64,000 nucleotides of DNA, taken from contig CAZPHH010000006.1 in assembly GCA_964586145.1 (NCBI GenBank), positions 15,337 through 79,336 of the forward strand, given 5' to 3'. This DNA comes from an uncultured Phycisphaeraceae bacterium. Its GTDB lineage: Bacteria > Planctomycetota > Phycisphaerae > UBA1845. Position 1 is the stretch's first letter. Each line of letters opens with the position of its first letter. The notes under the pieces were generated by a model, which searched no databases, was not told the DNA's origin, and saw only the letters and a list, made by a program, of their open reading frames with translations. A program made the translations under genes and the position numbers. Below are positions 1-18,654 of this stretch, piece by piece.

Positions 1-780
1 ATCCGCCGCCTTGCGCGACTTCAGCGTCAGAATCTGCAGGTCGCGGGCGGGGATCTCCTCGTCCAACTGCTCAATGAGGGCCTGGATGATGGCCACGTCA
101 TCCGGGTGGCCCAGGATCAGCAGCCCGGTGCCGACGGTCTCGATCGTGATGTCACCGCCGGTGAGCTGGATCTGGCCGAAGTCGATGGCGCCGCGCGGGG
201 TCGCGGGGGTGGTGGGCGCGCTGCCGAGTGATACTCGCGTCGGCGGGGCCGGTTCCTCCGCTGCAGGGGGCGGCGGCGTCTCGGCGGGCGGGCGTTTTCC
301 CTCGCGGGCCGGCGGTTCCGCCCGATCCGCGCCGCGGGGCGATCGGCCGGCCGGTGCGGCGGGCTTGCCGTCGGGCTTGGGCCCTTCCTGGCCTGCGGCA
401 GGCGCATCGTCGGCCGGCTTGTCTTTGGGTCGGGCACGGGCGGGCTTCTTCGGCGCCGGCGCGGGAGCGGGAGGATCCTCCTGTGCGGGCGTTCCTGCCG
501 TGGACTGCACGGATGACTCCAGGCTGGCCAGCAAGGCTCGGACCTGTTCGGCAAACGGGTCCGCATCCTCGTCGCTGTCGTTGGGCGAACTCGATTCGGC
601 CGGAGCCGGCTGAGCCTTTCGCTCCGCCTGCCGGGCCAGGGCCTCGAGCATCCTCTGCTCCAGAATCCGCTCTGCCGTCAGACCGTCGGCCGGGGCCGGC
701 TCGGTGGCGGGCGGATCGGCATAGGCCCACAGGCTCACCAGCATCAGAACGCTCGTCAGAATCCAGGGGACGCGTTTCAT
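1..780 (-). CDS. Secretin-family protein, N-terminal part (partial, continues past left edge)
   Basis: This ORF is absent from the ORF track because it has no stop inside the window. The reverse complement of 1-780 is one open frame starting at ATG 780-778. It begins MKRVPWILTSVLMLVSLWAYA (signal peptide) and continues with a Pro/Ala/Lys-rich linker. It then reads ...ITIETVGTGLLILGHPDDVAIIQALIEQLDEEIPARDLQILTLKSRKAAD, the same N-domain pattern as the giant ORF upstream. It is the likely carrier of the missing pore domain, but that part is outside the window. Confidence 0.6.
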   Translation of the reverse strand, partial: MKRVPWILTSVLMLVSLWAYADPPATEPAPADGLTAERILEQRMLEALARQAERKAQPAPAESSSPNDSDEDADPFAEQVRALLASLESSVQSTAGTPAQEDPPAPAPAPKKPARARPKDKPADDAPAAGQEGPKPDGKPAAPAGRSPRGADRAEPPAREGKRPPAETPPPPAAEEPAPPTRVSLGSAPTTPATPRGAIDFGQIQLTGGDITIETVGTGLLILGHPDDVAIIQALIEQLDEEIPARDLQILTLKSRKAAD

Positions 781-849
781 AGCGTGTCTATCCTTCCTTG
801 CCGGCGGACCGACGCAACGCCCGACCGACCGCCTCATCCTCAAGGCCGC

Positions 850-1002
850 TTTCCCGACTCCCGGTCCGCATGGCGGACCCTACAGCTTTTCCCGACTCCC
901 GGTCCGCACGGCGGACCCTACTTCATCCTTGTGGGACCGGCTTTCCAGCCGGTCTTTCCCTGTGGGACCGGCTTTCCAGCCGGTCTCGCCAGGGCGCGCC
1001 CT
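850..1002. repeat. Cluster of REP-like hairpin repeats in the spacer between the two secretin-family ORFs
   Basis: Type A hairpins GGTCCGC-NNN-GCGGACC lie at 863-879 and 901-917. Each sits inside a duplicated unit TTCCCGACTCCCGGTCCGCAYGGCGGACCCTAC. Type B hairpins GACCGGCT-TTCC-AGCCGGTC lie at 935-954 and 966-985, inside a duplicated TGTGGGACCGGCTTTCCAGCCGGTC. A 12-nt palindrome AGGGCGCGCCCT lies at 991-1002. Confidence 0.8.
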
Positions 1003-1077
1003 ACAATCTGCAATCGGTCCGCGATCGCCAAATCCATCACCATCTGCGGAGCACACCTTCAGGGTTGCCACCCGGTC

Positions 1078-4000
1078 TTACCGGCGACGTGGCCGGGCGC
1101 CGCCTCGTGTGCCGCTGCCGGACGTATTATCCTCCATGACGCCTTGGAGAACACCCTTGATTTCGTCCGGGCTCATGTTCTTCGGACGAATGATGACGGC
1201 CGTCCGGCCGCCCACCGGCCCCTGCTTCTCGAGGGTCCGGATGAGGTTCTCCACCTCTTCAAACCGGGACCGCGCACCGGCCAGCAGGATGCTGTTCGTC
1301 CGCCGGTCCGCGCTGAGCACCACGCGGTCGGCCTGGGCCTTGCCGCGGCTGGAACTCATGCTTTCCTTGACCTTGGCGTCGGCGTCCAGCAATTCCTGCA
1401 ACATGCTTGCCAGCTCTGTTACATCCACACCGGGCTGAAGCGGCACAACCTTGATGCCCGTCTCCAGGCTCGCGTCCTCCGTGTCGAGCGTGTCGACCAT
1501 CGTCCGGATCAATGACATGTCCGTCGGGTTCGCCCGAACGATAAGCTGGTCTGACGGATCGTCCGCGACGATCACAGGGACCATCTGGGTGGCCGTCGCC
1601 CCCCGGCCGCCCCGGCCTCGCGCGGTGTCGACGAACATCTGGGTGAGGATGGGCTCGATCAGGGACGGCGTAGCGTACTTTAATTTCATGAATTCCGGGC
1701 GGTTACCGCCGTCCAGAATCTCCACGTCAATCTCCGCGATGACCGCCGCGACGCGGTCGAGCTGGTCCTTGCCGCCGGAGACCACAAGCGAGTTCGTAGC
1801 ACTGGAAACGCTGATTCTCACGTCTCCGCTGAGGCCGCCGGCGGCACCGCCGCGGCGTCCGCCAGTACTGCTGCCGGGCTTTTGGAGGTACGTTTCCAGG
1901 ATGCCCTGCATCTCCGTCGCGTCCATGAACTTCAGCGCGAAAGTCCGGATTTCGCCCGGGCCGCGCTCCGGCGTGTCCAACTGCTCCAGGACGGCCATGA
2001 TCTCCTCGAACTCGGTGTCCCTCGCCTTGATCAGAAGAGTGTCCGTGCCGGGGGTATGGGTGATGGAGATGCCGCCGCGTTGGGGCATCCAGGACCGCCG
2101 CCCGCCCCCGCCCCCCTCGGAAAAGACTTCCGTAAGGGTCTGGGCGATGTTGTCCGCATCGCCGTGCTTGATCTGCACGATGCGGACCTGCTGGGCCACG
2201 TCGCTCTTAGTATCCACCTGCTTGACCAGCTCCTCGATCCGCTTCATGTTCTCGGGCGAGGCGGTCACGAAGATGCTGCTGGAGCCCCAGTCCGGCACGG
2301 CTGTCACCTGGTCCCGGGCTGTCCGGCCGCCCCGGAAGGACTGGGTGATCATCTCGGCCACGTCCCAGACCATCCCGTAGGTCAGCTTGAAGGCTCGGAA
2401 CTGCCGGTCCTTCTCCAGGTCGGGCTCGACGTCGAGTGATTCGATGAGAGGAGACAGTTCCGTCATCTCCTTGTCGCTGGCGAAGACCACCAGGGCATTC
2501 GTACCGGGGTCGGCGGAGATGCGCATCTGCTCGCCGCGGCGGGTGCTGACCCGCTGAAACGCCGCGCTGAGCGTGCGGGCGAGGTCTTCGGCGTTGGCGT
2601 GCTCGATCTTGACGACGCGCGTGGCCCGGACCTGGCTGCCCTCCACGTCGACTTCCTTGATGAGCGAGGCCACCTCCGCATGACGCTTGGCCGAGGCGGA
2701 CACGACCACCGACTGCGTGCCGTGCTCCACCACCGCGGTCACCTGGTCTCGCGGGCTGGCCCGGTACTGGCTGTACTGGGCGTTGATGGCGTTGACGATG
2801 CCGCTCGGATCGGCGAACTGCACCGGATAGACCTGGACCGTCCGCTCGGCATCGCCGGTGGGCTTCACGTCCAGGTTTTCCACCATGGCCTGCACCTGCA
2901 TGAGTTCCGCCTCCGTGGCGAACACCAGCAAGGAGTTGGTCCGCGTTTCCGCGAGGATCTGCATGGTGGTATCACCCTGCCGGGCCCGCTGGGTCGCCCG
3001 GAACAGGGTCTGGAGCTTCTGGGCGACCTCATCGGCGTTGGCTTCCTTCAGCGGGATGAGGTGCGTGGTGCGGCTGGTGCCCTCCACGTCAATCTTTCCC
3101 AGCAGTTCCTTGATCTTCGCCTGGTTCTGCGGAGAGGCCGTTGCCACCAGGGCGCTGGTCCCCCACGTGTAGCCGAACGACACCTCATCTTCCGCCCGCT
3201 GCCCGCGGGTGCGTGGGAAGGCGGCGTTCAGGGCGTTGATGGTGGAGCCGGGATCGGCGTACTTCAGGTCGTAGACCTCCACGATGCGCCCGGTCAGGTT
3301 CGTCGGCTCCTGGTCCAGTTGAACGATGATCTGCTCGACCTCCTCGATCTCGGCCGGCGCACCGGACATGATCAGCAGGTTCATCGCGTCGTCCGGCGTG
3401 ACGGTAACCGGCAGTTGACCCGTCCGAGTTCGACCGCCCTTCGCCCCGAGCACCTGGTTCACCGTATTGGCCACGTCCGACGCTCGCGCCTTGTGCATCG
3501 TGTAGAAGTGTGTGACCTTGCCCTGCCCCTTGTCGACGTCCAGCTCCTTGAGGAGGCCTTCGATCCTGGCATGGTTGTCCAGGCTGGCCGTCACGGCCAA
3601 CTGGGTCGAAGAGACGACAGCCGGCATAACTTGGTCCTTCTCAGGAAGGCGTGTGCCTGACACGCGGAACAGCGTGTTGATCGCGTTCGCCGCGGCACTT
3701 GCGTCGATCCACTCAAGCGTATAAGACCGCAGGGTCCGTTCCGTTTGCATCTTGGCCGGCACGTCCAGGGTCGCCACCAGCGTTTTGACCTGCTCCAACT
3801 CCGCCTCGGTGGAGAACACCAGCAGGGAGTTCGTCCGCGAATCGGACATGATCTGCATGGTGGTATCGCCCTGGCGTGTGCGTGTGGTCTGCCGGAAAAG
3901 CTGCTGGAGTCTCTGCGCGACCTCGTCCGCGTTGGCCTCCGTCAACTCGATCGTGTGCGTGGTGCGGCGGGTGCCCTCGACGTCGATCTTCTCGAGCAGT

Positions 4001-7000
4001 TCCTTGATTTTGGTCTGGTTCTGCGGGGAGGCCGTCGCGACGAGCGCACTGGTGCCCCAGGTGTAGCCGAACGCCACCTCGTCCTCCAGCCGCTGCCCGC
4101 GGGTGCGCGGGAAGGCGGCGTTCAGAGCGTTGATGGTGGAGCCGGGGTCGGCATACTTCAGGTCGTAGACCTCCACGATCCGCCCGGTCAGGTTGGTCGG
4201 CTCCTGGTCCAGTTGGACGATGATCTGCTGGACCTCCTCGATCTCCGCCGGCGTGCCGGAGAGGACCAGGAGGTTCATCGCGTCATCGGGCACAACCGTC
4301 ACCGGCAGTTGGCCGGTGCGGGTGCGACCCCGCACGCCGATGATCTGGTTGACGGTGTTCGCCACGTCGGAGGCCCGGGCGTTCTTCATGGTGTAGAACT
4401 GCTGCACCTTGCCCTGGCCCTTGTCCACGTCCAGTTCTTTCAGCAGGTTCGCGATCACCTCGTGGTTGTCCGCACTGGCCGTCACCACCATCTGAGTGGT
4501 GGAGACCACGGCGGTGCTGACCTGGTCGATTTCGGCCATCCGCACGCCGGAGACGCGGAACATGGTGTTGATGGCGTTGGCCGCGGCGCCGGCGTCGAGC
4601 CATTCGAGCGAGTACGTGCGCGACTCCCGCGCGGTGAGCATCCCGGCGCCTTCCTTGTCCAGTTCGGCAACCATCGTCTTGATCTGATCGACGTTGGCCT
4701 GGCTGGCCAGGACGACGATCTGCTTGCTGGAGACGCGCGGCGTCACCGAGACCGTGAGTTCGGCCGGGTTGACGTTCTGCACCTGGGCGTCGCGGTAGGC
4801 TTTCTGCCGGTTCGCGAACTCCTGGGATATCTGCGCGGCCGCGTCGTCCGCGTTCAGGTACGCGAGCTGGATGGTCTCGGTGATCAGCGGAATCGTCGGC
4901 GTGCCGGCGAACTCGTCCAGCTTGTCGATGACCTGGCCCTTGATCTCCTCCTGCTGCTTGCGGGTGCCGCGGACGAGCACGGTGTTCGTGGCGAGGTTCG
5001 CCTCGGCCCGCGGCGGGTCGAGCCCGTCCAGCGTCCTTCCCCCGAAGAGGTTGTTGATGTTCCGCGCCACGTCCGCCGCCTGGGCCCGGGCCAGGTGATA
5101 CACGACCGTCTCGATCGCCACGGGCTGGGCGTCCGGGACGTCAATCGTCTTGAGCACCTCCTCCACCAGGCGGAACGTCGACGTGCCGCCCATCACGATG
5201 ATGGAGTTCGTCCGGGCGTCCGCCGTGGCGCTGAATACGTCCATCTTGGACAGCGCCTGCCGGCTCCCCCCGGCAAGACCGCGTACCATGGCCTGCATCT
5301 GATCCAACACGAGCGTTGCGCGGGCGTAGTTGAGCTTGTAGATCCTCATGTCGATGAGCGTCATCGGCTTGTCGAGGATCTCCACCATCGACTCGATCTG
5401 CGGCATCAGCTCATCCGGCGCCTTGACGAACAGTTGCATGGTGTCGTCGTCACCGACGATGTTCATCACCGCGTCGCGGCCGGTCTGGCCCAGGGCGGTC
5501 TTAAGCTTCTCCGCCAGCACGGTGGGCGTGGCCTCCTTGACGAGGATGACCTTGGGCTTGCTCTCCTCCAGGGCCTTGGTCTTCATGCTCTCGATGCGCT
5601 GCGCGAGCTCCTCACGCAGCTCCACGGGGGCCGCAATAAACAGGGTGTTGGTTTCCGATTCGGCGGTGATGACGACCCTTTTCGCGCCGCCGGCGCTGCT
5701 CCTGGAGGTGTAGGCCGTCCCGAGCGCCTTGGAGACGCGGGTGGCGTCCAGGATGCTCGGCAGCGGGAACTCCATGACCTGGGCGTCGATCTGCTGGTCG
5801 AGCGTTTCGATCAGCTCTTCAATCCGGGGAAAGTCGATGCTCAGGGCGCTGATAACCAGGGCGTTGCCGTCCTCGTCTACAATGACGGTTGGTTCATTCA
5901 ATCCGGACGGATCGAAGCCGCTGGTCGCCTGCCGGCGGCCCGTCGTTCCGGCCTTGAAGAGCCGCTCGAGCTGCGGAGCGATCTTCTTGGCGTCCGCATA
6001 CTTCAGAACGCGGGTCCGCAACTCTCGCTGGGGCACATCCTGGGCTTCCAGCTTCGCCACCAGCTCTTCCACCAGCTTGATGGCCGGTGGGGGGCCCATC
6101 ACCATCAGCGTGTTCGTGGCCGGGTTGCTGGTGAGGTTGATGTCCTCCGCCACGTTGATGCCGGCCTCTTCGGCGCCGGCCATCTCGATGATTTGCTCAC
6201 CCATCTGGGCGGCCGCCGCGGCAGCGGCCGCCGCAGTGGCCCCGCCGCGCGGCGTGGGTCGCGTGCCCCCCGTCCGGCCCCGGCCGATGCCCAGCAGCGA
6301 CTTGAGCAGCGCCTCCACCTCGCCGGCGTTGAGCTTCTTGAGCTCAATGATTTTGAAATCCTCCTGCTTCTCGCTCTTGCGGTCGATGGTGGCCAGCAAC
6401 TTCACGATGCTGGGGAAATCCTGCGTGGCGGCGCGGATGACCAACGTCCGCGTCCGCGGATCGGGCACCACCCGGATGTTGCCGGCCATCGCCGCCATCT
6501 GCTGCTGGAGCATCTGCTGCTGTTGCTGCGCCTGTTGCTGCGCCTGCTGTTCCGGGGTCGGTTGGCCGGGTTCGCCGGGCCGTCGACCGCCCCTTTCCCC
6601 TTCCGGCTGGCCCGGCTGACCGGGCTGACCGGGCTGGCCCGGCTGGCCGCCGGGCTGCTGACCCCGCTGCGTGCGCGGCGTGGGAATTCGCTGCTGAGGG
6701 ATATTGAACATCGCCTCCAGAAGCTGCGCGGCGACTCGCACGTCCACGTACTTCATCCGGTACACGCGAATGTCCGGCGGCAGCGGGACGTCGCCCAGAT
6801 CGGTCCCGAGTTTGTCCAGCATGTCGCGGATGTCCGTCAGGTCCCGGCCAAGCCCTTCCAGGATGAGGACGCCGGTCTGATTGTCGTACCGAATCTTGAC
6901 CGGCACCCGCTCCGGCTCCGTGGTTTCCGCTTCGGCATTCGTCGCGTCTTCCATGGGGACGTCCGGGCCGACCATCGCGCGACGTACGTCGTCGACTGTC

Positions 7001-10000
7001 GCTTGCGGCGAATCGTCAGCCGGCTGGGTGGTCGGCGGCTTCTTCTCTTCGTCGGTGTCGGTCAGGGCTGCCGTCGCGGCCACCAGTACATCGAGGTCGG
7101 CAACCAGGCCGGCCGGCAGCACGCAAGGGAGCGTCTGGCTTTCCTCAATGCCGGACGTGTCCGCCGGACTCAGCGGCGTCACCTGCTCAACCAGGCTCTC
7201 GTAGTCAATGGCATTCGGGTCCGCGGCGTCCACATCAATTGGAACCCCCGGAAACCGGCTTTGCAGAATCAGGGCAATCTCCCTGGCGGACAGGCCCACG
7301 CGGGGAATCGGCACCGCCAGGGTCTTCAACGCGGTCTGTTCCCTGGACGGCTTGTCGATGTACTCCCGGATCCACTCCTCCACCTGCGGGAACGTGCCGG
7401 GATCACCGCGCAAGGTGAGGAGTTTGGTGAATGAGATGTAATCGACCTTGGGACCCTTACCTTCCTCGTAGAACTGGTCGATCATGCCCTCCAGTTGAAA
7501 CACCGCGTCATACGGATCGGCCCACATTAGCTCGATCATCTTGGTGGGAAGATGGTCAGAGCTCGTTGACCCAACCTGCGGCTCTTCCTCCTCCGTTCCT
7601 TCGTACAGCGCATGCAGCGAGTCAATCTGCGCGATCTTGGCCGGGCTGGCCATGACGACCATGGTGCCGCCCCAGGTGTCCGTCACGAGGGCGATGTCCT
7701 TGCCCTTGCGCGGACCGCCCACAGGCGCGAACCAGTCGTCGGTCTTGGGCTTCGGAGGCAGACCCCCGGAGTCCACCAAAGTGAACACGATGTCGGCGAA
7801 GTCTTCCGGGGCACAATTCCGCAACGTGTACACTTTCGTCGACGCCCCCGTGTCCGCTTCCGCATCCAGCAGCCGAATCCAGCCCTCCACCTCGTTCACC
7901 TGCTCGGCGTGGCCGGCCAGTACCAGGGCGTTGCCGCCCGGAGCGGGCAACACGGTCACGTCCTGACCGGATGGGCCCGCCGGCGAAGCGGCCGGCGTGG
8001 GCGTCGGAGGCGAGCCAGGGGCCCCGCCCCTGCGAGCGCCGCCTCGATCCGGCCGGCGGATCGCGGCCGTCCGCGTGCCGCCGCTGAGCATGGCGTTGAT
8101 GGTGTTGGCCATCTCCGTCGCGTCGGCCTTCTCCAGTTTCACCGTGCGGATGACCCGCGGGCCGTCACCCACGCGATCCAGCTCGGCGATCATCATTTCC
8201 GCCTCGGCCATGAGCACGCCCGGGGCAACCACCAACAGCCGGCCCTTGGTCGCGTCGGGCTCAACCAGCAGGCTCGCCTGGGCCGGGCCCTTGCCGCCGG
8301 GCGCCGCCGCCTTGAGCGCCCCCGAGGCGACGGCCTCGGCGTACTTCATGTCCAGAAAGCTCCGGAGCAGTTGGGCGGTCTGGTTCGCGTCGGCATTTTC
8401 CAGCTCGAAGAAGCGTACCTGGGTCGCGTCGCCCGCCTGCGGCACGTCCAGCTCTTCCAGCAGGCCGGCAATCTTGCCCATGGTCTCCGTCGGGGCGATC
8501 ACCAGAAGGCTGTTCCCAATCTCGGCGATTTTGACGTCGCTGCCGGAAACGCTGACCGCCACCGGCGCCTGAGGCTGATTGCCTGGCCGTCGCGGCGGGC
8601 GGCGGACCGGTGCCTGCGGCCCAGCCTGATCCAGGATCAGGGCCTGAATCACGCCACGGGCCTCGGCCGGCGCGATGTACCTCAGCCTGAACGTGCGCTG
8701 CTCCAGGGATGCGTCGATGTCATACCGGGCGACCAGCTCCTCCAGCCGCGTCATCTGGGCCGGCGAAGCGCCCGCGACGAGCACCGCATCGGCGTCGGCC
8801 GCCAGCTTGACGGCCTCGGCCAGCCCCATCTGGGTCAGAATCTGCTGGAGGGTCTCCACGATCTGCTGAGGCTCCGCGTGCGCCACGGGAACCCGCTGCC
8901 ACTCGATCGGGATTTCCGCGTCGGCATCAAGGTCCTGGATGAGCGGCCAGTAGCGATCGTTCCACTCGTCGTCCGAACAGAGGACGTAGAGCATGTTGGT
9001 GCTGTCATCGCCCTGGAACTTCTCTCCGGTTTGCGCGGCGGCGGTTGGGCGACGCGGGGCTTGCCTGCCTCTGCGGGGCGCGGCGGCCGCCGGGGCCGTC
9101 GGGGCTGCCCCCGCGTCCAGGGCCTTGAGCATGTTGGCCACCACGGACGGCCTGGCGTGCCGCAGCCGGGCCTTGTGCAGGGTTTCCTCATCCTGGGCCA
9201 CGTCCAGTTCCCTCAGGATGGTGACCGCCCGTTCGATGTCGGCGGCGGTGCCACCGGCGATGATGACGGACGTGCCCGACGGGTCGGCCACGAAGCGAAG
9301 CCCGCTTCCGTCGCCGTGGATGATGTCAAACAGGGTCTGGGCCTCGGTGACCCGCTTTTCCAGGTCTGTCGTGTTTTCCATTTCCACTCGCCGGTAGGGG
9401 TCCGGCTGCACCACGTCGAACTGGGCGACGAGGTCATGCACCTGCTGCACCTGCTCGTCGTCACCGACGACGATGAGCTGGTTCTGGTCCGGGCGAGGGA
9501 TGATGGTCAGGTTGTCAGCGTTTACGTTCGCCGGAGGCGCGGCCGCTCTGGGCTGGCGGGGCGGGCGGCGCTGCGGCGCCGCGGGCGCACCCGGGGCGCC
9601 GGTGAGGATCGGGTTGGCGATGGAGAGGAAGTCCTCCACGGCAATGTGCTGAAGCTGAATGACGACGGGGGCGAAATCGCGGGACTCGCGAATGTCGATC
9701 AGGGCCAGGAACTCGCGGATTTCCTGGATCTTCTCGGGCACGGCCCGGAACAGGATACGCCGGTTCGCGTCGTCGGCGTACGCGTCGATGGGCCAGGCGT
9801 CCGCCGCCGTGGGCTGAGGGGCGCCGCGCCGGACCTGGGGGCGGTTCACCGCGGCATCGCTGAAGCCGCTGACCATCTGCTTGAGGGTGTTCAACGCCTG
9901 CGTGGCCGGCACGTACCGGACCTCCAGGATTTCCAGCCGGGTCGGGTTGGGCGTCTGCCCGCCTTCGGCGAACTTCTTCACCAGTTCAATGAACTTGTTC

Positions 10001-10800
10001 ACGTCGCGGGCCAGCGCGAAGATGGTGATGGAGTTCGTCTGCTGGAACTGAGACGTCAGGACGTAGTCCGGCAGGAAATCCCGAAAGGGCGTGAGGTCGT
10101 CGATGGTGCCGCTCTCCGGCGTGTAGAGCACCATCACCAGTTCCATCTCGTCGAGATTGGCCTCGCGGTACAGCGACTCCTTGACGTAGATCCGGCCCTG
10201 CGGAAGAAACCGCTTCATGTCCGATACCCGTCGAACCGCGAAGCCGTCCTTCTCCTTCTGGATGTAGTACTGCTGCGGGTGAGCGAACAGAAGGTTGCGG
10301 ACCCGACTCAGCACCCTCTCGTAGTCCAGGACTTCCGTGGTCACGAAATTGACGGGGCCGCCCGGGGGCCGCTCGCCGAGGACGGCCACGCCCGTGGCCC
10401 GCTGGAACCCGTCGATCAGGTCGGCGTACGTGCCGTCCTTGATGCTGAACTCGTACTTCCGCTCCTCCGGCGGCTTGCCCAGGTTGTCCGGGCTGACGAT
10501 CACGCTGTCGGACACCGGGGCGGAGCGCTCGGCGGGCGGACCCATGTAGTCCTGCGGCTCCGGGTTGCGAGGCGCACTCCGCGGGGTTGTGCGCCGCTGC
10601 ACGCCCGTCGAAGAAGTGTTCGACTTGCGAATGTTGCTGGAGGGCGGGTCGGCGCTCGGACCGGCCGGGGCCAGTTGCGCCCAGACCAGGCAGGCCGCCC
10701 AGGCCCAGATCGCGGCAGCCCGTGCCGCCCCGTATGTCGCCGTCTTGTGCGTACTGCTGCGAATCATCGTTCTGTCCTCGCTGTCCGGCGGGATCTCCAC
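1078..10800 (-). CDS. Giant (3240 aa) secreted protein made of ~30 tandem secretin N-domain (Secretin_N-like) modules; no secretin beta-barrel domain
   Basis: This is a single uninterrupted ORF. A more likely start is M12 at 10767 (MIRSSTHKTATYGAARAAAIWAWAACLVWAQLA, signal-like). The module pattern recurs throughout. Examples are VRFFELENADANQTAQLLRSFL, IVEVYDLKYADPGSTINALNAAF, ILAETRTNSLLVFATEAELMQVQAMVENLDV and LSADRRTNSILLAGARSRFEEVENLIRTLE. The C-terminus (...IIRPKNMSPDEIKGVLQGVMEDNTSGSGTRGGARPRRR) lacks any VP.LG.IP.LG.LF-type secretin motif. The gene sits at the end of the pseudopilus operon. Confidence 0.85.
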   Translation of the reverse strand: MEIPPDSEDRTMIRSSTHKTATYGAARAAAIWAWAACLVWAQLAPAGPSADPPSSNIRKSNTSSTGVQRRTTPRSAPRNPEPQDYMGPPAERSAPVSDSVIVSPDNLGKPPEERKYEFSIKDGTYADLIDGFQRATGVAVLGERPPGGPVNFVTTEVLDYERVLSRVRNLLFAHPQQYYIQKEKDGFAVRRVSDMKRFLPQGRIYVKESLYREANLDEMELVMVLYTPESGTIDDLTPFRDFLPDYVLTSQFQQTNSITIFALARDVNKFIELVKKFAEGGQTPNPTRLEILEVRYVPATQALNTLKQMVSGFSDAAVNRPQVRRGAPQPTAADAWPIDAYADDANRRILFRAVPEKIQEIREFLALIDIRESRDFAPVVIQLQHIAVEDFLSIANPILTGAPGAPAAPQRRPPRQPRAAAPPANVNADNLTIIPRPDQNQLIVVGDDEQVQQVHDLVAQFDVVQPDPYRRVEMENTTDLEKRVTEAQTLFDIIHGDGSGLRFVADPSGTSVIIAGGTAADIERAVTILRELDVAQDEETLHKARLRHARPSVVANMLKALDAGAAPTAPAAAAPRRGRQAPRRPTAAAQTGEKFQGDDSTNMLYVLCSDDEWNDRYWPLIQDLDADAEIPIEWQRVPVAHAEPQQIVETLQQILTQMGLAEAVKLAADADAVLVAGASPAQMTRLEELVARYDIDASLEQRTFRLRYIAPAEARGVIQALILDQAGPQAPVRRPPRRPGNQPQAPVAVSVSGSDVKIAEIGNSLLVIAPTETMGKIAGLLEELDVPQAGDATQVRFFELENADANQTAQLLRSFLDMKYAEAVASGALKAAAPGGKGPAQASLLVEPDATKGRLLVVAPGVLMAEAEMMIAELDRVGDGPRVIRTVKLEKADATEMANTINAMLSGGTRTAAIRRPDRGGARRGGAPGSPPTPTPAASPAGPSGQDVTVLPAPGGNALVLAGHAEQVNEVEGWIRLLDAEADTGASTKVYTLRNCAPEDFADIVFTLVDSGGLPPKPKTDDWFAPVGGPRKGKDIALVTDTWGGTMVVMASPAKIAQIDSLHALYEGTEEEEPQVGSTSSDHLPTKMIELMWADPYDAVFQLEGMIDQFYEEGKGPKVDYISFTKLLTLRGDPGTFPQVEEWIREYIDKPSREQTALKTLAVPIPRVGLSAREIALILQSRFPGVPIDVDAADPNAIDYESLVEQVTPLSPADTSGIEESQTLPCVLPAGLVADLDVLVAATAALTDTDEEKKPPTTQPADDSPQATVDDVRRAMVGPDVPMEDATNAEAETTEPERVPVKIRYDNQTGVLILEGLGRDLTDIRDMLDKLGTDLGDVPLPPDIRVYRMKYVDVRVAAQLLEAMFNIPQQRIPTPRTQRGQQPGGQPGQPGQPGQPGQPEGERGGRRPGEPGQPTPEQQAQQQAQQQQQMLQQQMAAMAGNIRVVPDPRTRTLVIRAATQDFPSIVKLLATIDRKSEKQEDFKIIELKKLNAGEVEALLKSLLGIGRGRTGGTRPTPRGGATAAAAAAAAAQMGEQIIEMAGAEEAGINVAEDINLTSNPATNTLMVMGPPPAIKLVEELVAKLEAQDVPQRELRTRVLKYADAKKIAPQLERLFKAGTTGRRQATSGFDPSGLNEPTVIVDEDGNALVISALSIDFPRIEELIETLDQQIDAQVMEFPLPSILDATRVSKALGTAYTSRSSAGGAKRVVITAESETNTLFIAAPVELREELAQRIESMKTKALEESKPKVILVKEATPTVLAEKLKTALGQTGRDAVMNIVGDDDTMQLFVKAPDELMPQIESMVEILDKPMTLIDMRIYKLNYARATLVLDQMQAMVRGLAGGSRQALSKMDVFSATADARTNSIIVMGGTSTFRLVEEVLKTIDVPDAQPVAIETVVYHLARAQAADVARNINNLFGGRTLDGLDPPRAEANLATNTVLVRGTRKQQEEIKGQVIDKLDEFAGTPTIPLITETIQLAYLNADDAAAQISQEFANRQKAYRDAQVQNVNPAELTVSVTPRVSSKQIVVLASQANVDQIKTMVAELDKEGAGMLTARESRTYSLEWLDAGAAANAINTMFRVSGVRMAEIDQVSTAVVSTTQMVVTASADNHEVIANLLKELDVDKGQGKVQQFYTMKNARASDVANTVNQIIGVRGRTRTGQLPVTVVPDDAMNLLVLSGTPAEIEEVQQIIVQLDQEPTNLTGRIVEVYDLKYADPGSTINALNAAFPRTRGQRLEDEVAFGYTWGTSALVATASPQNQTKIKELLEKIDVEGTRRTTHTIELTEANADEVAQRLQQLFRQTTRTRQGDTTMQIMSDSRTNSLLVFSTEAELEQVKTLVATLDVPAKMQTERTLRSYTLEWIDASAAANAINTLFRVSGTRLPEKDQVMPAVVSSTQLAVTASLDNHARIEGLLKELDVDKGQGKVTHFYTMHKARASDVANTVNQVLGAKGGRTRTGQLPVTVTPDDAMNLLIMSGAPAEIEEVEQIIVQLDQEPTNLTGRIVEVYDLKYADPGSTINALNAAFPRTRGQRAEDEVSFGYTWGTSALVATASPQNQAKIKELLGKIDVEGTSRTTHLIPLKEANADEVAQKLQTLFRATQRARQGDTTMQILAETRTNSLLVFATEAELMQVQAMVENLDVKPTGDAERTVQVYPVQFADPSGIVNAINAQYSQYRASPRDQVTAVVEHGTQSVVVSASAKRHAEVASLIKEVDVEGSQVRATRVVKIEHANAEDLARTLSAAFQRVSTRRGEQMRISADPGTNALVVFASDKEMTELSPLIESLDVEPDLEKDRQFRAFKLTYGMVWDVAEMITQSFRGGRTARDQVTAVPDWGSSSIFVTASPENMKRIEELVKQVDTKSDVAQQVRIVQIKHGDADNIAQTLTEVFSEGGGGGRRSWMPQRGGISITHTPGTDTLLIKARDTEFEEIMAVLEQLDTPERGPGEIRTFALKFMDATEMQGILETYLQKPGSSTGGRRGGAAGGLSGDVRISVSSATNSLVVSGGKDQLDRVAAVIAEIDVEILDGGNRPEFMKLKYATPSLIEPILTQMFVDTARGRGGRGATATQMVPVIVADDPSDQLIVRANPTDMSLIRTMVDTLDTEDASLETGIKVVPLQPGVDVTELASMLQELLDADAKVKESMSSSRGKAQADRVVLSADRRTNSILLAGARSRFEEVENLIRTLEKQGPVGGRTAVIIRPKNMSPDEIKGVLQGVMEDNTSGSGTRGGARPRRR
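2839..4623 (-). repeat. Intragenic tandem duplication, two ~891-894 bp (297/298 aa) units of four N-domain modules each
   Basis: Unit 1 starts at SRTYSLEWLDAGAAANAINTMF (codons at 4623 downward). Unit 2 starts at LRSYTLEWIDASAAANAINTLF (3732 downward), an offset of 891 nt. Long stretches are identical, for example QLDQEPTNLTGRIVEVYDLKYADPGSTINALNAAFPRTRGQR and GYTWGTSALVATASPQNQ. The duplication is mirrored in the antisense track ORFs 2858-3172 and 3752-4066. Confidence 0.9.
6603..6647 (-). repeat. Five tandem 9-nt units (CCGGCTGRC) encoding (GQP)5 inside a Gln/Gly/Pro/Ala low-complexity hinge
   Basis: The plus strand reads ccggctggc ccggctgac cgggctgac cgggctggc ccggctggc. The surrounding protein is ...RGQQPGGQPGQPGQPGQPGQPEGERGGRRPGEPGQPTPEQQAQQQAQQQQQMLQQQMAAMAG (about nt 6485-6700). 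Confidence 0.85.
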
Positions 10801-10844: not shown

Positions 10845-12143
10845 TCACGCCGACGCCGATCGCACAACACCCTCCCCGCGCGCCGTTGGTCCGGCCGTTC
10901 CCATCGGACGGGCGGACGGGGAACCCACGCCCTCGTCCGCGCCGGTGACGGCCGGCGCCGTCTCCACCGCCGGTCCGTCCGGTCCGTTTGTATTCATCTC
11001 GTCCATGCCGTTCGTGTCCGGATCCATCGGGTACTCTTCGTCCTCCGGCGTTTCCGCCGGCTGCGGTTCAAGTCCCCGGTCGGGTTCGTCGTCCGCGCCC
11101 TCGCCGGCATCGTGTCTCGACGGCACCAGGGGTCCGACCGGGTCTTCCAGGGCCTTCAGATTGGCGACGCCGACCAGAACTTCGGGATAGGCAGTCGCGG
11201 TTTCCACCGGCACGCAGTCTGCCAATCGCTCGCCGGTGGGGTAGAAGTATTCTTCTCCGTCCTCTGTACGCGTCACGGCGCCCAGGGGATGCACCCAGAT
11301 GATGGTGCCGCCGTCAAGGTCGTCCCCAATGCCCTTCTGTTCACGCAGCGTGCTGTTTACGCGGCTGCCGATGGTCACGTCGCTCCCCCCGTACCTCCAG
11401 ACCATCGTGATGAACTTCTCATCGCGGAGCGGGTCAAAATTCCGCTGACGCTCAGGGGGTCCCGGGGCTTCCACGTCCACCACGACGACGGGGGGCGGTG
11501 GCGGCACCGGTTGCGGAACCGGCGGCCAGAACGGCGGTTCGGCCATGGCCAGCAGGTCCGGATCGTTGTGCTTGATGATCGCATCGGGAGGCTCGCCCGG
11601 TTTGATCGGACCGGCCGCCTTCATCCGGGGCAGCACGGCGACCTCCAGGTCGGCGTCGATCTTGACTTTGTCCTCCCGAAGCCGGCGGCTGGCCGGCAGG
11701 AGCTTGAGGCTGGTGCACTGCGCCACACTGGGCAGCTCGTGCAGGTTCCGCACAAACCGCAGGGCATCGGGCCACGTGCCCTCGGCGGATATCGAGAACC
11801 GGATCGTAACGATTCCGGTCCGGGGATCGGGGGTGGATCTCGGTGCGACGCGAGGCCGGTCGAGGTTGGAGGCGCCAATCAACTCGTCGAGGCGCGGCTT
11901 GATCTGATGCTCCACGACGCCGGGGTCGGTCGAGCCGGTTCGGTCGACGTATTCCGCGTACCGGGCCTGGTCATCCTGGAACTGGGTTTGAATCTTCTCG
12001 AGGTCTTCCAGCTTCTGGCGGGCGTCGGCGATCCGCGTCGTGTAGTCAAACGCGCGGCGCAGGCCCGGCGCCGCGCGAGAGACGACGATCACGCCCGTCA
12101 CCACCGCAAACCCGATCAGGAGTTTCTTCTCGCTTGCCTTCAT
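10845..12143 (-). CDS. GspM/PilO-like inner-membrane assembly protein with long Pro/acidic C-terminal extension
   Basis: The N-terminus MKASEKKLLIGFAVVTGVIVVSRA forms a TM helix. A coiled coil follows (ADARQKLEDLEKIQTQFQDDQARYAEYV). The gene lies directly after the GspL-like gene. The family call rests on architecture and context only. Confidence 0.5.
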   Translation of the reverse strand: MKASEKKLLIGFAVVTGVIVVSRAAPGLRRAFDYTTRIADARQKLEDLEKIQTQFQDDQARYAEYVDRTGSTDPGVVEHQIKPRLDELIGASNLDRPRVAPRSTPDPRTGIVTIRFSISAEGTWPDALRFVRNLHELPSVAQCTSLKLLPASRRLREDKVKIDADLEVAVLPRMKAAGPIKPGEPPDAIIKHNDPDLLAMAEPPFWPPVPQPVPPPPPVVVVDVEAPGPPERQRNFDPLRDEKFITMVWRYGGSDVTIGSRVNSTLREQKGIGDDLDGGTIIWVHPLGAVTRTEDGEEYFYPTGERLADCVPVETATAYPEVLVGVANLKALEDPVGPLVPSRHDAGEGADDEPDRGLEPQPAETPEDEEYPMDPDTNGMDEMNTNGPDGPAVETAPAVTGADEGVGSPSARPMGTAGPTARGEGVVRSASA

Positions 12144-12158: not shown

Positions 12159-13865
12159 TCAGCCGCGGTCGCCTCGCGTGGGCGGCGTGCCGCCGTTCCT
12201 CCGGGCCAAATCCGGCCGCCCCCGCGTGCCCACCACGGTAATGTCCAGCTTGCCCGACACAGGGTGCGTTCCGTGTGCCGCGGTGCTGGTGGCCCCGAGC
12301 TTCACCTCGTAGTGGCGGCCCGGTGCGCCTTGCACCCGGAACTCCTGCAAACGATTCACCAGCTCCGTCAGGACCTGCGGCACCGTCGCCTTCACCCGAA
12401 GGGTGATCAACTGATCCTTCTGCTGCATGGCGATGTCATCCAGCACCAGTTGGTCGGTGCCTGGCAAGCACGCCAGAATGTCGTGCAGCTCGTCAATCCA
12501 GATGATCTGTCTTTCCTCCAGGTCGCGAACCGCCCCGACCAGGCTGCTCAACTGGTCCATCTCTCTCCGGTTTGAGCGCGCTTCCTCGATCTGCCTCTCC
12601 AGCTCCGCCAGTTGACGCTTCTGCGGCGTGACGGTCTGGAAATACAGAACGCCGGCCGCCGCAAGGAACAGCGCCGCCACGGCGGCCACGATCGGCAGCT
12701 TGCGAAGACGTTGCTCCGTCTTCGTCACCACCTTCTTGGGATGCAGAAAATCAATGTGGTCTTCCGGCCGGGACGTCTGGGCCTCGATCAGCCCCAGCAC
12801 CGCCGCGAAGCCGCAGGCCTCCCGACCCCGATCGCCGTCCCAGCCGAAGTGAACGGCCGGGCTGAACAGCTCGGCGGTCATGTCGAAACGGTCGCGCAGG
12901 GCCTCGGCCAGCCGCTCTTCCAGACCGGTATCGCCTCCGATCACCACGTGGTTGATCGTCACGCCCGGCTCTTCCGAGCGGTACGCCTCGACGGACCGTA
13001 CCACTTCCATCACCAGGGCGTTCAACGCCGCGGACCGTTCGTCACCGCGAGCCGGCGGCGGGCTGCCCGACAGGCGAAGGGACAGTCCCTCATCCGGCGT
13101 CGACGGCGGCTCTGTCCGCGATGCCCCGCGGGCGTGCGGTTCGGACTCCCTCGGCACCGCCACGGAAGCCGCCCGCGTGAACGTGAGTTGGCCGCCGGAA
13201 ATCACGTCGATTTCCGTGAACGTGCTGCCCACGTCCACGAACAGCACCCGCTCGTGGCGACCGGCGTCCAGCACGGCATTGACGGCCAGGCGGTTTGCGT
13301 GGGGCCGCAGGCCGGCCCGCATCAGCTTCAGACCCGCCGCCTTCAGGATGGCCCGGTACGAATCGAGCACGTCCAGCCGCACGGCCGCGACCACGGCGCT
13401 GAGCGTGCCGCGCTCGCCATCGGGCACGGGGGCCGCGTAGTCGACGGCCGCCTGGGACGCCGGGAACGCCAGCTCTCGCTCAAACTGCATGGCGACGACC
13501 CCGGGCAGATCTTCCGGCGCTGCCGGCGGCAGGCCGCGGAGTCGCTTGACCGTCACGCGGTCCCGCGGCAGGCCGATCAGCACGTCGCGGGTCCGGATGC
13601 GCTCGCGGTCCAGAAACTCGCGAAGCAGACCGCCAAAGGCCTGCGGATCGGCCGGCCTGACGTCCGGCGGGATGGCAAGGGACTGGACGCGGAGGATGCG
13701 GCTGCGGCCTTTCCGGACGGCCGCATGCACCACGCGTACGTCGTGATCGTCCCAGTCCAGGGCGAGGAACTGTTTTTCAACGAGCGCTGGCAACACCCAG
13801 TTGCCCTCCTTTCCGTTCATCCTCCAGCCGCAACGGGTATCCGACACCCAGCGGCGTGAGGTCAC
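12159..13865 (-). CDS. PilM-PilN / GspL-like fusion (actin-like ATPase-fold domain + TM + coiled coil)
   Basis: PilM-like motifs are present: LALDWDDHDVRVVHA, VLFVDVGSTFTEIDVISGGQLTFTRAASVA and VVIGGDTGLEERLAEALRDRFDMTAELFSP. A TM helix (LPIVAAVAALFLAAAGVLYF) follows, then a PilN-like coiled coil (QKRQLAELERQIEEARSNRREMDQL). An alternative start is M16 at 13820. Confidence 0.65.
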   Translation of the reverse strand: MTSRRWVSDTRCGWRMNGKEGNWVLPALVEKQFLALDWDDHDVRVVHAAVRKGRSRILRVQSLAIPPDVRPADPQAFGGLLREFLDRERIRTRDVLIGLPRDRVTVKRLRGLPPAAPEDLPGVVAMQFERELAFPASQAAVDYAAPVPDGERGTLSAVVAAVRLDVLDSYRAILKAAGLKLMRAGLRPHANRLAVNAVLDAGRHERVLFVDVGSTFTEIDVISGGQLTFTRAASVAVPRESEPHARGASRTEPPSTPDEGLSLRLSGSPPPARGDERSAALNALVMEVVRSVEAYRSEEPGVTINHVVIGGDTGLEERLAEALRDRFDMTAELFSPAVHFGWDGDRGREACGFAAVLGLIEAQTSRPEDHIDFLHPKKVVTKTEQRLRKLPIVAAVAALFLAAAGVLYFQTVTPQKRQLAELERQIEEARSNRREMDQLSSLVGAVRDLEERQIIWIDELHDILACLPGTDQLVLDDIAMQQKDQLITLRVKATVPQVLTELVNRLQEFRVQGAPGRHYEVKLGATSTAAHGTHPVSGKLDITVVGTRGRPDLARRNGGTPPTRGDRG

Positions 13866-15381
13866 GGTAGTAGATGATCTGGGCCACCGGCCCCCGCATC
13901 TGCAGGGCGGCCTGGATTCGTGAGACGGTGCCCACGTGCGTCGCGAACCCGACGGATTCCACCTCGAACTGGAACCCGCGGGTGGTGACGAACGGAATCA
14001 CCTCGGCCATCGTCTCCTCGTCCACGACGTTGTGGATGAGGAGCCAGGCCGGCGTGCGCTTGGCGGTGGAGTCCAGCGCAGCCCGCTGCGTCACGATGTC
14101 GTCCACCATCTGGGCCGTGAGGTGCGGAACGCAGCGCAGCACCTCCGCCGGCGCGGTGTTCACGTCGATCAGCCCGACCTGCTCCGGCTCAATCCAGAGC
14201 GAGAGGCGGTCCAGAATGCGGTGGAAATCCTCCAGGCCAAACGGGCTCGGAAGCCACTGGCCGCCGCCCTGGGGCACGGGCTTGAGCAGGTCAACCAAGC
14301 TGTACATGGTGGTCATCCGCACCCGCGTTCCGCCGCGCCGGGTGTTCCTACCGCGGTTGCCGGCGGGCTGGGAAGTCGACGGCTCGCCGCCGGTCCCGTT
14401 CGAATTCGCCTCGTCGGAGTAATCCGCGGCCAGGGCGGCGGCGATGAAGTCCAGCTCCTCTTCCGAGAAGTACTCCGCCATATCTTCGCGAATCCCATCG
14501 ATCCCCTGTCCGATGTAGAACCGCGGCTTGTTGTCGTTGGCCGTGTTGTAATCACGCGAGTAGACCGTCATGTACGGATAGAGACCGCGGTTCAACTCGC
14601 CGTCGCCGTCGTCCAGCGGGAACGACAGGTCGCCGTCGTTCTCGTTCGCCGACAGCAGCCCGTTCCGGTCGTAGTCTTCGCCGTACAGAATCTGGCCGGT
14701 GAAGCCGCGGACCATGAGAAGCTCCTCGACCGTGTCAAACGGAGCGTTCTTCGGCCGGTACGGCGGATCCAGCGTGGCGTAGTAGGCGGACTCGGCCCCG
14801 TGCTCACCCGGGATGTCGTCCTCGTCCCGCCAGTCCATCAGGGCGTCCACCAGCTCCTCGACCGGCGCCTCCGGAAAAATCTGTGTGATCAGGGTCCGGA
14901 GCTGGTCGCGGCTGGCGACATTGATGTTCAGTCTGGCCGCCTCGTTCGTCAGTCCGTAGCGAACATTCTGGTCATCCGCCGGATCATCCGCGACAATGCT
15001 GAAGAGGAACGCGGGCCGCCGGTCGTTCTCCACCTCGGTGGAATCGGGCAGGCCCAGCTCCGTGGGCTCCAGATCGCCCCGCCAGACGAGGGCGCGGCGC
15101 AGCTCGTCCGGATTGCTGTACCACGCGTCCGTCTCCAGACGGCGTTCCCGGAGCAGCAGCATGACCCGCTGGATGCCCGCATCCGCCGCCTGGCGGGCCT
15201 GGAACCGGTGAAACGCGCCTTGGGTCACCGCCAGATCGGCGTTCATCTCAAAGGAGAAACTCGCCGCCAGCAGCGCGACAAGCACCAGCACCAGAAGCAC
15301 CACCGGCAGCACGAAACTCCGGCGCACCCGCCCCGCGGGCGGTTGCGTTCGGCAGAAATGGAGGTTCGCACGTGGGCTCAT
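13777..15381 (-). CDS. gspK: GspK-like minor pseudopilin
   Basis: The N-terminal hydrophobic segment RRSFVLPVVLLVLVLVALLAASF lacks Glu+5, which is typical of GspK. Helix-hairpin-helix-like repeats are present, including IDVNTAPAEVLRCVPHLTAQMVDDIVTQRA and LNINVASRDQLRTLI. The gene sits after the J-like gene. Confidence 0.7.
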   Translation of the reverse strand: MSPRANLHFCRTQPPAGRVRRSFVLPVVLLVLVLVALLAASFSFEMNADLAVTQGAFHRFQARQAADAGIQRVMLLLRERRLETDAWYSNPDELRRALVWRGDLEPTELGLPDSTEVENDRRPAFLFSIVADDPADDQNVRYGLTNEAARLNINVASRDQLRTLITQIFPEAPVEELVDALMDWRDEDDIPGEHGAESAYYATLDPPYRPKNAPFDTVEELLMVRGFTGQILYGEDYDRNGLLSANENDGDLSFPLDDGDGELNRGLYPYMTVYSRDYNTANDNKPRFYIGQGIDGIREDMAEYFSEEELDFIAAALAADYSDEANSNGTGGEPSTSQPAGNRGRNTRRGGTRVRMTTMYSLVDLLKPVPQGGGQWLPSPFGLEDFHRILDRLSLWIEPEQVGLIDVNTAPAEVLRCVPHLTAQMVDDIVTQRAALDSTAKRTPAWLLIHNVVDEETMAEVIPFVTTRGFQFEVESVGFATHVGTVSRIQAALQMRGPVAQIIYYRDLTPLGVGYPLRLEDERKGGQLGVASAR

Positions 15382-18137: not shown

Positions 18138-18593
18138 CTACTTGTCTCGCCAGTTCTTGATGTCGTCGTCGGTACCGTCCTTGCCGTCCGGTCCCACGCT
18201 CCAGAGGTCATATGACTTCTCGTTGACATCGCCGGGACTCTTGTACCGGTACTCGCGCTTCCACGGGTCGCGCAGGTCCTCCGGACTGCCTTCCAGGTAC
18301 GGGCCCTTCCAGATCTCGCGCTCGCGTTCCTCATCGATGCTGCGGGGCTTCTCGAACAGGGCCGCCAGCCCCTCGTCCGTCTCCGGGAAACTGCCCACGT
18401 CCATCCGGTACCGCCCCAGGGCCGTGGCAATGATCCCGTTGCCCCCGATCGCCGCTCGGGCGATGTCGATTTTGGCCTGGTCACCCGCCGTGATCAGGCT
18501 GGGGACCACAAACGCCGCCAGCAGCGCCAGGATGCCGACCACCAGCAGAATCTCCATCAGGGTGAAACCTCGGTTTCGTCGCACGCGTCTCAT
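18138..18593 (-). CDS. gspG: Major pseudopilin GspG
   Basis: The sequence MRRVRRNRGFTLMEILLVVGILALLAAFVVP carries the G|FTLME motif. The C-terminal DLWSVGPDGKDGTDDDIKNW matches the GspG calcium-loop pattern. The track ORF starts at 18677, but the internal M29 at 18593 gives the canonical short leader. Confidence 0.85.
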   Translation of the reverse strand: MRRVRRNRGFTLMEILLVVGILALLAAFVVPSLITAGDQAKIDIARAAIGGNGIIATALGRYRMDVGSFPETDEGLAALFEKPRSIDEEREREIWKGPYLEGSPEDLRDPWKREYRYKSPGDVNEKSYDLWSVGPDGKDGTDDDIKNWRDK

Positions 18594-18654
18594 GCCACCA
18601 TCTCCTTGCTCTGTTCCTGCGTCACGATCCATTCGCTTCATCGCGAGTACCGCC

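Follow-up and report, generated by a model that had tools for sequence, protein, structure and literature searches.

A giant pore-less secretin-family protein of a Phycisphaeraceae bacterium as the probable N0-bearing chain of a split secretin

Textbook accounts describe secretins as outer-membrane channels in which the dimensions of the periplasm dictate the size of the periplasmic part, with three or four N rings (six in Thermus, the largest secretin studied so far), the N0 domain contacting the inner-membrane platform and the pore residing in the outer membrane. How, then, should a gene be understood that encodes more than thirty N-domains in succession and no pore at all? This question is raised by a 64,000-nucleotide stretch of DNA from an uncultured Phycisphaeraceae bacterium (contig CAZPHH010000006.1, positions 15,337 to 79,336; the whole stretch is referred to as the window), in which such a gene, here called the giant, is followed by a second secretin-family gene, its partner, that runs off the window. 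An earlier sequence-only reading had taken the giant for a stand-alone protein made of N-domains only and had suggested that it might stack into an extremely long periplasmic conduit or scaffold. According to the analysis presented here, it is likely that the giant is the inner-membrane-proximal chain, without a pore, of a giant secretin that consists of two chains and belongs to a machine of the T2SS (type II secretion system) type. This overall judgement combines three elements held with different confidence: the split-secretin architecture is highly probable, the coupling of both chains through a divided half-domain is slightly favoured, and a single linear stack of rings is tentative.

The open reading frame (ORF) of the giant runs without a break on the minus strand from a GTG at 10800 to position 1078 (3,240 codons). 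Because the orthologues P0001 and P0002 begin at the equivalent of an in-frame ATG at 10767 (MIRSSTHKTATY...), the likely product comprises 3,229 amino acids, and residue numbers follow this form throughout.

1078..10767, minus strand: giant pore-less secretin-family gene, 3,229 amino acids from ATG 10767
10663..10767, minus strand: signal peptide predicted by eye from the translation (residues 1 to about 35: basic n-region, AAAIWAWAACLVWA, AQLA)

The GC content by codon position (GC3 0.87, GC1 0.67, GC2 0.45) resembles that of the flanking genes, and the ORF is under purifying selection, with a ratio of nonsynonymous to synonymous substitution rates (dN/dS) of 0.20-0.24 at a dS of about 0.5, determined against three relatives over about 2,900 codons. 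A chance ORF in high-GC DNA was also considered and is ruled out by the coding-type GC3 together with this dN/dS; the long ORFs on the opposite strand are shadows typical of DNA with 66% GC.

With regard to domain content, Pfam assigned 30 stretches of the giant to Secretin_N (PF03958, E 9e-248), the family that had been proposed for its units, and found no secretin pore domain (PF00263, E up to 1). A pore hidden Markov model (HMM) built from relatives likewise had no match in the giant, so that its description as pore-less stands. Furthermore, a repeat HMM of 73 positions, built iteratively from the giant's own units, delineated 33 full units, besides which at least one interrupted unit and one N1-like domain were read from the sequence, in good agreement with the roughly 30 to 33 units previously counted by eye. 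Among NCBIfam models, TIGR02517 (GspD) fits the giant best, with 18 matched stretches that are due solely to the N-domain section of this model, and AMIN domains are absent.

10198..10479, minus strand: N0-like domain (residues 97-190), from a family profile compared with the PDB
9943..10170, minus strand: first N1-like beta-alpha-beta-beta-alpha domain (residues ~200-275) within the conserved N-terminal module, a pattern read from the sequence
1210..9933, minus strand: array of 33 full Secretin_N units (residues 279-3186), delineated by the repeat HMM (30 stretches by Pfam)
2851..4620, minus strand: tandem duplication of a four-unit block (residues 2050-2341 and 2347-2639)

Most units are joined by linkers of just 2-7 residues, and several carry long disordered insertions. 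In the interrupted unit (residues ~1145-1333), the alpha1-beta2 loop holds an acidic insertion of ~110 residues, and a Gln/Pro/Gly-rich low-complexity insertion (GQPGQPGQPGQP...QQAQQQAQQQQQ) lies within the loop of another N-domain (residues ~1375-1415); the DNA of the latter (6520-6648) consists of short tandem repeats with periods of 9 and 12 according to Tandem Repeats Finder. In the region of the N1-like domain, weak Secretin_N matches were obtained for two of 12 members. Judging from a median pairwise identity of about 20% at the protein level, the units are old. The sole recent duplication is that of the four-unit block, whose DNA copies (2859-3158 and 3753-4052, at a spacing of 894 nt) are 77% identical and whose units are 67-93% identical at the protein level; it also appears as an offset in the BLAST alignment with P0001. 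The duplication is absent from the closest relatives P0001 and P0002 and accounts for the 33 units of the window as compared to 29 in each of the two.

These numbers bear on the trivial explanation that the locus is an assembly or annotation artefact, that is, an array expanded or collapsed during assembly, or two ORFs misjoined or separated at the junction through an error in sequencing. Repetitive genes are indeed prone to misassembly, and the window has four units more than its closest relatives. However, units that share only ~20% of their residues, and a single recent duplicate with 77% DNA identity, are easily resolved by short reads, at least seven independent assemblies share the layout of giant and partner or the conserved tail and stop, and both ORFs are separated by a spacer of 297 nt that includes its own translation signals. 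An artefact is thus extremely improbable.

If the giant were half of a secretin, which half would it be? A first profile of its N-terminal module (residues ~95-280) matched within the PDB solely the N0 domain of Pseudomonas aeruginosa XcpQ/GspD (E 0.007). With a profile of 22 sequences restricted to residues 97-190, ten of the eleven PDB matches were to secretin N0 regions, including those of XcpQ (5mp2/4e9j, E 3.6e-4), PilQ (4ar0), LspD (7pmp) and GspD (5wq7). Pfam, when run sequence by sequence on the N-terminal module (window protein included), did not detect N0; the profile matched the N-termini of 61 out of 63 homologues, among them a stretch of P0036 that Pfam calls type_II_gspD_N0. The two diagnostic models are mutually exclusive in that the N0 profile matches the giant and no partner, whereas the pore HMM matches the partners and not the giant. 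As far as these matches go, the N0 end and the pore end of a secretin are encoded here on separate polypeptides. The domain list of the sequence-only reading was accordingly right for the Secretin_N units and incomplete at both ends, as it had missed the N0-like domain as well as a half-domain at the C-terminus. The system would work like a GspD secretin and has all of its defining parts. However, the pore domain is not on the giant's own chain, and this ORF should therefore not be labelled a secretin without qualification: it represents the N0 and N-domain chain of a divided one.

The other half is expected on the next gene, only the beginning of which lies within the window:

1..780, minus strand: partner secretin gene, its 5' part only, with 260 amino acids visible from ATG 780, running off the window
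781..1077, minus strand: intergenic spacer of 297 nt with hairpin repeats and a Shine-Dalgarno-like stretch (AAGGAAGGA) ahead of the partner ATG

The visible part starts with a signal-peptide-like segment, followed by an acidic and then Pro-rich linker and by N-domain sequence. Over 259 amino acids, it is 80% identical to the N-terminus of the partner in the orthologous locus L001, which according to Pfam harbours 14 Secretin_N domains and one Secretin domain (PF00263) and comprises at least 1,686 amino acids, reaching the end of its contig. Owing to this identity, the pore missing from the giant is almost certainly located on the next gene, just beyond the window. Five loci with a complete giant and partner were compared, in which the giant is 67% (L001), 39% (L005) or about 28-31% (L006, L008, L009) identical to that of the window. 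In all five, the next gene encodes a protein of 1,500-1,827 amino acids with both PF03958 and PF00263, carrying 10-14 N-domains besides the pore, and the gene order GspK, PilM_2-like, a gene here called X, giant, partner is constant. The earlier view of the next ORF as a separately exported member of the secretin family fits these data, and that of the giant as a stand-alone N-domain protein gives way to that of the N0-bearing half of a split secretin. In both proteins, the typical n/h/c pattern of signal peptides is seen by eye, and the spacer between the two genes measures 105-307 nt (window and five orthologous loci), with the partner always having its own putative signal peptide.

Neither a sigma-70-like promoter nor an intrinsic terminator was found in the spacer between giant and partner. 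Its hairpins form two tandem pairs (850-921 and 935-985), the repeat units being GACCGGCTGGAAAGCCGGTC, present twice, and a unit of 34 nt containing GGTCCGCC.TGCGGACC, likewise present twice; the first hairpin recurs once more at 33955-33974. The hairpins resemble elements of the repetitive extragenic palindromic type and could influence how stable the mRNA is or how strongly each chain is expressed relative to the other. Downstream of the partner, a small ORF of 180-183 amino acids without a Pfam match was observed in three distant loci (L005 22118-22669, L008 22011-22562, L009 21051-21593), with a counterpart of 236 amino acids in L007; it could encode a pilotin or an accessory protein.

Is this arrangement peculiar to one genome? 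A homologue search over about 5.8 billion proteins retrieved two sets of relatives. P0001-P0014 (2,560-3,545 amino acids) contain PF03958 only and, where named, derive from metagenome-assembled genomes (MAGs) of Phycisphaerae or Planctomycetes. P0015-P0061 (2,905-5,121, mostly 4,000-5,100 amino acids), which combine many PF03958 domains with PF00263, stem from MAGs of Phycisphaerales, other Planctomycetota and Verrucomicrobiota. Over their full length, the partners align with the final 1,500-1,700 residues of P0017 and P0015 (31-37% identity), the C-terminus of the giant aligns up to residue 2437 of P0017, and the head of the partner starts at about residue 2522 of the same protein, which moreover occupies the same operon slot as the giant. 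By alignment, the giant followed by its partner corresponds in linear order to single-ORF secretins that have 4,000-5,100 amino acids and 25-49 N-domains. In 15 single-ORF relatives, the best match to the giant's tail lies 1,300-2,000 residues before the C-terminus, that is, one partner-length, and in those inspected the half-domain that heads the partner follows the tail match after 90-320 disordered residues. The sequence data are compatible with either direction, fission or fusion.

In eleven of the 15 junction-bearing single ORFs (P0015, P0016, P0017, P0025, P0037, P0050, P0052, P0159, P0167, P0174 and P0203), a signal-peptide-like hydrophobic stretch was observed within the junction loop, and few other parts of the whole protein are as hydrophobic as this stretch. 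In some cases, such as P0159 (MRNNTMLASCLALAVLAQA/PAEA), the embedded segment also includes a Met in frame and a site of the AxA type, and that of P0017 (L007, about 17300-17440) is preceded by AGGA and a TTG. Seemingly fused ORFs may thus still give rise to two chains, either by internal initiation or by cleavage.

The size of the family became apparent when the N-terminal module was compared by HMMER with 1.84 billion cluster representatives, a full scan that yielded 258 clusters (50% identity) at E <=0.001 and 101 at E <=1e-30. Of the sequences collected that reach 2,000 or more amino acids, 65 are pore-less members with the C-terminal tail (2,221-5,437 amino acids; 13-54 units, median 24), 15 are junction-bearing single ORFs, and 40 are other single-ORF giants (25-48 units). 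The architecture is hence not unique. The unit number is very plastic across the family, ranging from 13 to 54; the largest member seen, the pore-less P0157, has 5,437 amino acids and 54 full Secretin_N units, with the tail motif eight residues from its C-terminus. In a single-protein scan of GTDB species representatives, two only were close to the giant of the window, both Phycisphaerae MAGs, in keeping with a planctomycete as the source. Current labels such as 'hypothetical protein', 'GspD' or 'secretin N-terminal domain-containing protein' hide this architecture.

The existence of single-ORF relatives, together with a split point that lies inside a domain, might suggest a decaying gene, in which a nonsense mutation broke an ancestral single-ORF giant and only the downstream, pore-bearing part still works. 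Against such decay, the split form is the majority among sequences with this N-terminal module (65 versus 15) and has been kept across 27 to 71% identity together with a conserved tail motif. In addition, the dN/dS of the giant over about 2,900 codons, the Shine-Dalgarno-like site, ATG and predicted signal peptide of the partner, and the location of the sole N0 on the giant, without which the partner could not dock in the canonical manner, all argue for two functional genes, which makes decay very improbable.

Where, then, is the secretin divided, and how might the two chains find each other? Both ends of the split carry part of a domain:

1126..1221, minus strand: C-terminal half N-domain of the giant (beta1-alpha1: GPVGGRTAVIIRPKNMSPDEIKGVLQGVMED), kept in all pore-less family members
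1081..1125, minus strand: Ser/Gly/Arg-rich basic C-terminal tail (NTSGSGTRGGARPRRR), its character kept in the 14 first-found homologues and most of about 50 more
46..195, minus strand: half N-domain forming the first folded element of the partner (beta2-beta3-alpha2: DITIETVGTGLLILGHPDDVAIIQALIEQLD), matching repeat HMM positions 34-70 only

All 14 first-found pore-less proteins end alike, with an invariant GP, a strand-helix and a Ser/Gly/Arg-rich tail terminating in Arg or Pro, and nearly all of about 50 further pore-less members share this ending. The strand-helix corresponds to the first half (beta1-alpha1) of an N-domain and gives a weak match to positions of about 3-23 of the repeat HMM. 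The complementary beta2-beta3-alpha2 head is present in five out of five partners as well as the window fragment, where it follows the predicted signal peptide and a Pro/Gln-rich linker of 40-270 residues. When tail and head are combined, the composite matches positions 6-70 of the repeat HMM, and in the window the score rises from 19.5 bits for the head alone to 26.5 bits; three other pairs gain by a similar amount. Since tail and head flank the same loop position in the single-ORF relatives, the split can be placed by alignment in the alpha1-beta2 loop of one particular N-domain, a loop that is also the site of large disordered insertions in other units of the giant.

The composite was further modelled with AlphaFold2 (AF2) as a construct of 86 residues in which tail and head are covalently joined, using an alignment of natural single-ORF relatives. 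The model reached a mean predicted local distance difference test (pLDDT) score of 73 (84-87 in structured blocks) and a predicted template modelling score (pTM) of 0.60, with the order strand-helix-strand-strand-helix. Its best PDB matches were secretin N-domains, namely those of EscC, InvG, GspD, XcpQ and PilQ (template modelling scores of 0.54-0.63 over 76-84 of 86 columns). An earlier single-sequence AF2 model that included the preceding unit had given the same secondary structure, with scores blurred by inter-domain geometry. The composite model speaks for the compatibility of the two halves and not for binding. On balance, we slightly favour the view that the giant's tail and the partner's head rebuild one N-domain and thereby couple the chains.

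Based on these elements, the following assembly may be envisaged. Both chains would be exported by Sec, and the partner would take its place in the outer membrane in the common 12-15-mer form. With the symmetry of its partner, the giant would oligomerise into stacked rings, an expectation we infer because Secretin_N domains behave in this way in every solved secretin. Its N0 ring would dock on the inner-membrane platform, with the product of gene X and a PilM_2/GspL-like protein as candidates, and its C-terminal half-domain would pair with the N-terminal half of the partner to form one N-domain, keeping both chains in register. Together they would build an uninterrupted tube with roughly 49 rings of the N type, through which the pseudopilus (GspG-K) would act. 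The number derives from one N1-like domain, 33 units, one interrupted unit, the composite and the 14 N-domains of the L001 partner, that is, about 49-50 N-type domains in total and the top of the range of 25-49 found among single-ORF giants. Extrapolated from 3-4.5 nm per ring, as in known secretins, the full stack would be about 0.15-0.2 µm long. The long conduit is our best mechanistic guess; in its complete form, i. e., a two-chain conduit of ~49 stacked rings and 0.15-0.2 µm whose chains are joined non-covalently by fragment complementation of the split domain, it must be regarded as doubtful.

Several points weigh against the two-chain giant secretin as a whole or in part. Ring formation, the stacking of all units and the binding between the chains are inferred, and a tube of ~0.15 µm far exceeds an ordinary periplasm. 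Enlarged periplasms have been described for Planctomycetales and Pirellulales, whereas internal membrane elaboration is apparently absent in Phycisphaerae according to a 2025 review (PMC12673574), so that adaptation to a very wide periplasm, the rationale offered by the sequence-only reading, is not established for this class. The N0 assignment holds at the profile level only (E 3.6e-4) and is missed in the window protein by the Pfam N0 model, the pore-bearing part of the partner lies outside the window and is known through its orthologues, and the gain in HMM score due to the tail is only 3.5-7 bits. The AF2 test, finally, relied on a joined construct and a shallow alignment, and no GspE, GspC or GspO was found among the window ORFs scanned.

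The sheer length of a 49-ring tube, which would far outreach a normal periplasm in bacteria reported to lack internal membrane elaboration, leads to a different reading of the same two chains, in which the giant's ~34 N-domains do not make up a single stack of rings. They would instead serve as a flexible periplasmic tether or scaffold, as a sheath that is folded back or multilayered, or as a cage around the channel, and could thereby fix the outer-membrane pore to the platform or the cell wall without any tube of 0.15 µm. A scaffold would also more easily tolerate a unit number that varies from 13 to 54 and shifts by block duplication than would a channel of fixed span, and the long disordered insertions in several units fit it as well. 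Then again, most inter-unit linkers comprise just 2-7 residues, like those between the stacked N rings of secretins, all characterised Secretin_N domains form rings (PMC5745081 and established knowledge), and N0 and pore are found at opposite ends of the combined chain, in the style of a linear channel. We therefore consider such a non-stacked arrangement rather unlikely.

What kind of machine the two chains would serve is indicated by the genes upstream. As the sequence-only reading had recognised, the giant lies at the end of an operon of pseudopilin and other T2SS genes, of which it is the last but one, before the partner:

18658-19983, minus strand: GspF (Pfam T2SSF)
18141-18677, minus strand: GspG (Pfam T2SSG)
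17222-18028, minus strand: GspH-like pseudopilin (Pfam GspH, weak)
16218-17222, minus strand: ORF without a family assignment by Pfam, between the GspH-like and GspJ-like genes
15394-16218, minus strand: GspJ-like pseudopilin (Pfam T2SSJ, weak)
13780-15381, minus strand: GspK (Pfam T2SSK_1st)
12162-13865, minus strand: PilM_2/GspL-like protein (Pfam PilM_2)
10848..12143, minus strand: gene X, 432 amino acids, between the PilM_2-like gene and the giant

Gene X keeps its position in every locus and varies in size from 430 to 746 amino acids. It gave no match in Pfam or in a sequence search of the PDB; by eye, it reads as a transmembrane helix and a stretch resembling PilO/GspM, with a linker rich in Pro and a C-terminal domain rich in beta structure. 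Its product is a candidate inner-membrane platform partner for N0, conceivably a functional analogue of GspC/GspM. GspI was not identified in the operon by Pfam. As the scanned ORFs revealed no T2SS ATPase, its gene probably lies elsewhere. The gene ahead of GspF encodes a peptidase and not GspE, namely an M14 peptidase in the window (20266-22309, minus strand) and in L002, and an M64 peptidase in L007.

The inventory leaves room for the alternative that the apparatus is a type IV pilus machine rather than a protein-secreting T2SS, in which the array of N-domains would steer or ensheath a fibre on its way through the envelope, as with Thermus PilQ or the pili seen to emerge from surface structures of planctomycetes. 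In its favour, the match of the platform protein is to PilM_2 and not to GspL, the nearest structural counterpart that has many N rings (Thermus PilQ) is the secretin of a type IV pilus, and neither GspC nor GspE was seen beside the operon; moreover, pili and unusual uptake structures have been discussed for planctomycetes (PMC12673574). However, the operon combines GspF with pseudopilins of the GspG, GspH, GspJ and GspK types, the last of which is characteristic of T2SS, the best NCBIfam model of the giant is that of GspD and not of PilQ, and AMIN domains are lacking. A pilus apparatus is hence improbable, and it would in any case alter the cargo and not the split-secretin architecture.

How far does such a two-chain giant secretin depart from known systems? 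GspD (P. aeruginosa XcpQ and GspD of enterotoxigenic Escherichia coli or Vibrio cholerae) presents N0, Secretin_N and pore in the same N-to-C order as the gene pair, has GspF, G, H, J and K as operon neighbours, as here, and provides the best NCBIfam model, TIGR02517. In contrast to GspD, in which N0, three N-domains and the pore share one chain of 650-750 amino acids, about 49 N-type domains (counting the orthologous partner) are distributed here over two polypeptides with about 4,900-5,000 amino acids in total. PilQ of Thermus thermophilus spans a wide periplasm with six stacked N rings (N0-N5), secretin domain and rings together measuring 350 Å (PMC5745081). It shares with the giant the lengthening of the periplasmic part by extra beta-alpha-beta-beta-alpha N rings as well as long loop insertions in some N-domains, but is a single chain of 757 amino acids with six rings from a type IV pilus/DNA-uptake machine, while the pair described here has about eight times as many units on two genes. 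The closest precedent for the splitting of a secretin is the mitochondrial T2SS of jakobids and heteroloboseans, in which GspD lacks the N-terminal region, GspDN2 and GspDN3 represent the C- and N-terminal halves of an N-domain, and GspD was found to interact with GspDN1 by yeast two-hybrid analysis (PMC8134430). Here, too, a secretin is divided over several polypeptides including half-N-domain proteins; yet the system is eukaryotic, consists of single small N-domain proteins instead of arrays, and is encoded by dispersed instead of operon-adjacent genes, and no correspondence between the split sites can be claimed. The single-ORF giants (P0015-P0061), lastly, have the N0-like start, 25-49 Secretin_N units and, in P0017, the same operon position, and differ in that one ORF includes the pore; no experimental study of them was found in the literature searched.

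The same literature, which omits some journals, contained no publication on secretins with tens of N-domains or on split bacterial ones, and nothing relevant on giant or multi-N secretins in Planctomycetota or Phycisphaerae. The 2025 review of the phylum makes no mention of secretins or T2SS (PMC12673574). A preprint on 'giant genes', considered as a possible prior description, deals with Omnitrophota proteins and not with secretins. The giant split secretin is thus not unique to this genome and appears to be undescribed and structurally extreme. The family reaches 25-50 or more N rings, which here are shared out between two genes, the break lying within a domain at a conserved position. Should the rings stack, this would set a new scale for trans-envelope conduits, raise the question of how a pseudopilus or substrate crosses about 0.15 µm, and hint at something unrecognised in the envelope of Phycisphaerae. 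A true conduit of 49 rings would be several times longer than any secretion channel seen so far and would imply a very deep periplasm, an invagination of the inner membrane at the machine, or a new arrangement of N-domains, and the divided domain would constitute a natural split-domain 'coupler' in an envelope-spanning machine. Should the rings not stack, a second, non-channel use of Secretin_N domains would emerge. Stacked or not, the split half-domain junction represents a concrete and testable assembly device, and with at least 65 pore-less members in addition to the single-ORF forms, the family is large enough for comparative and structural work.

As for the remainder of the window, polynucleotide phosphorylase, accA, a GH20 hexosaminidase and an LD-carboxypeptidase confirm an ordinary chromosomal context, and a leucyl-tRNA synthetase (50250-53564, minus strand) of 1,105 amino acids is unusually long for a bacterial enzyme of this type.

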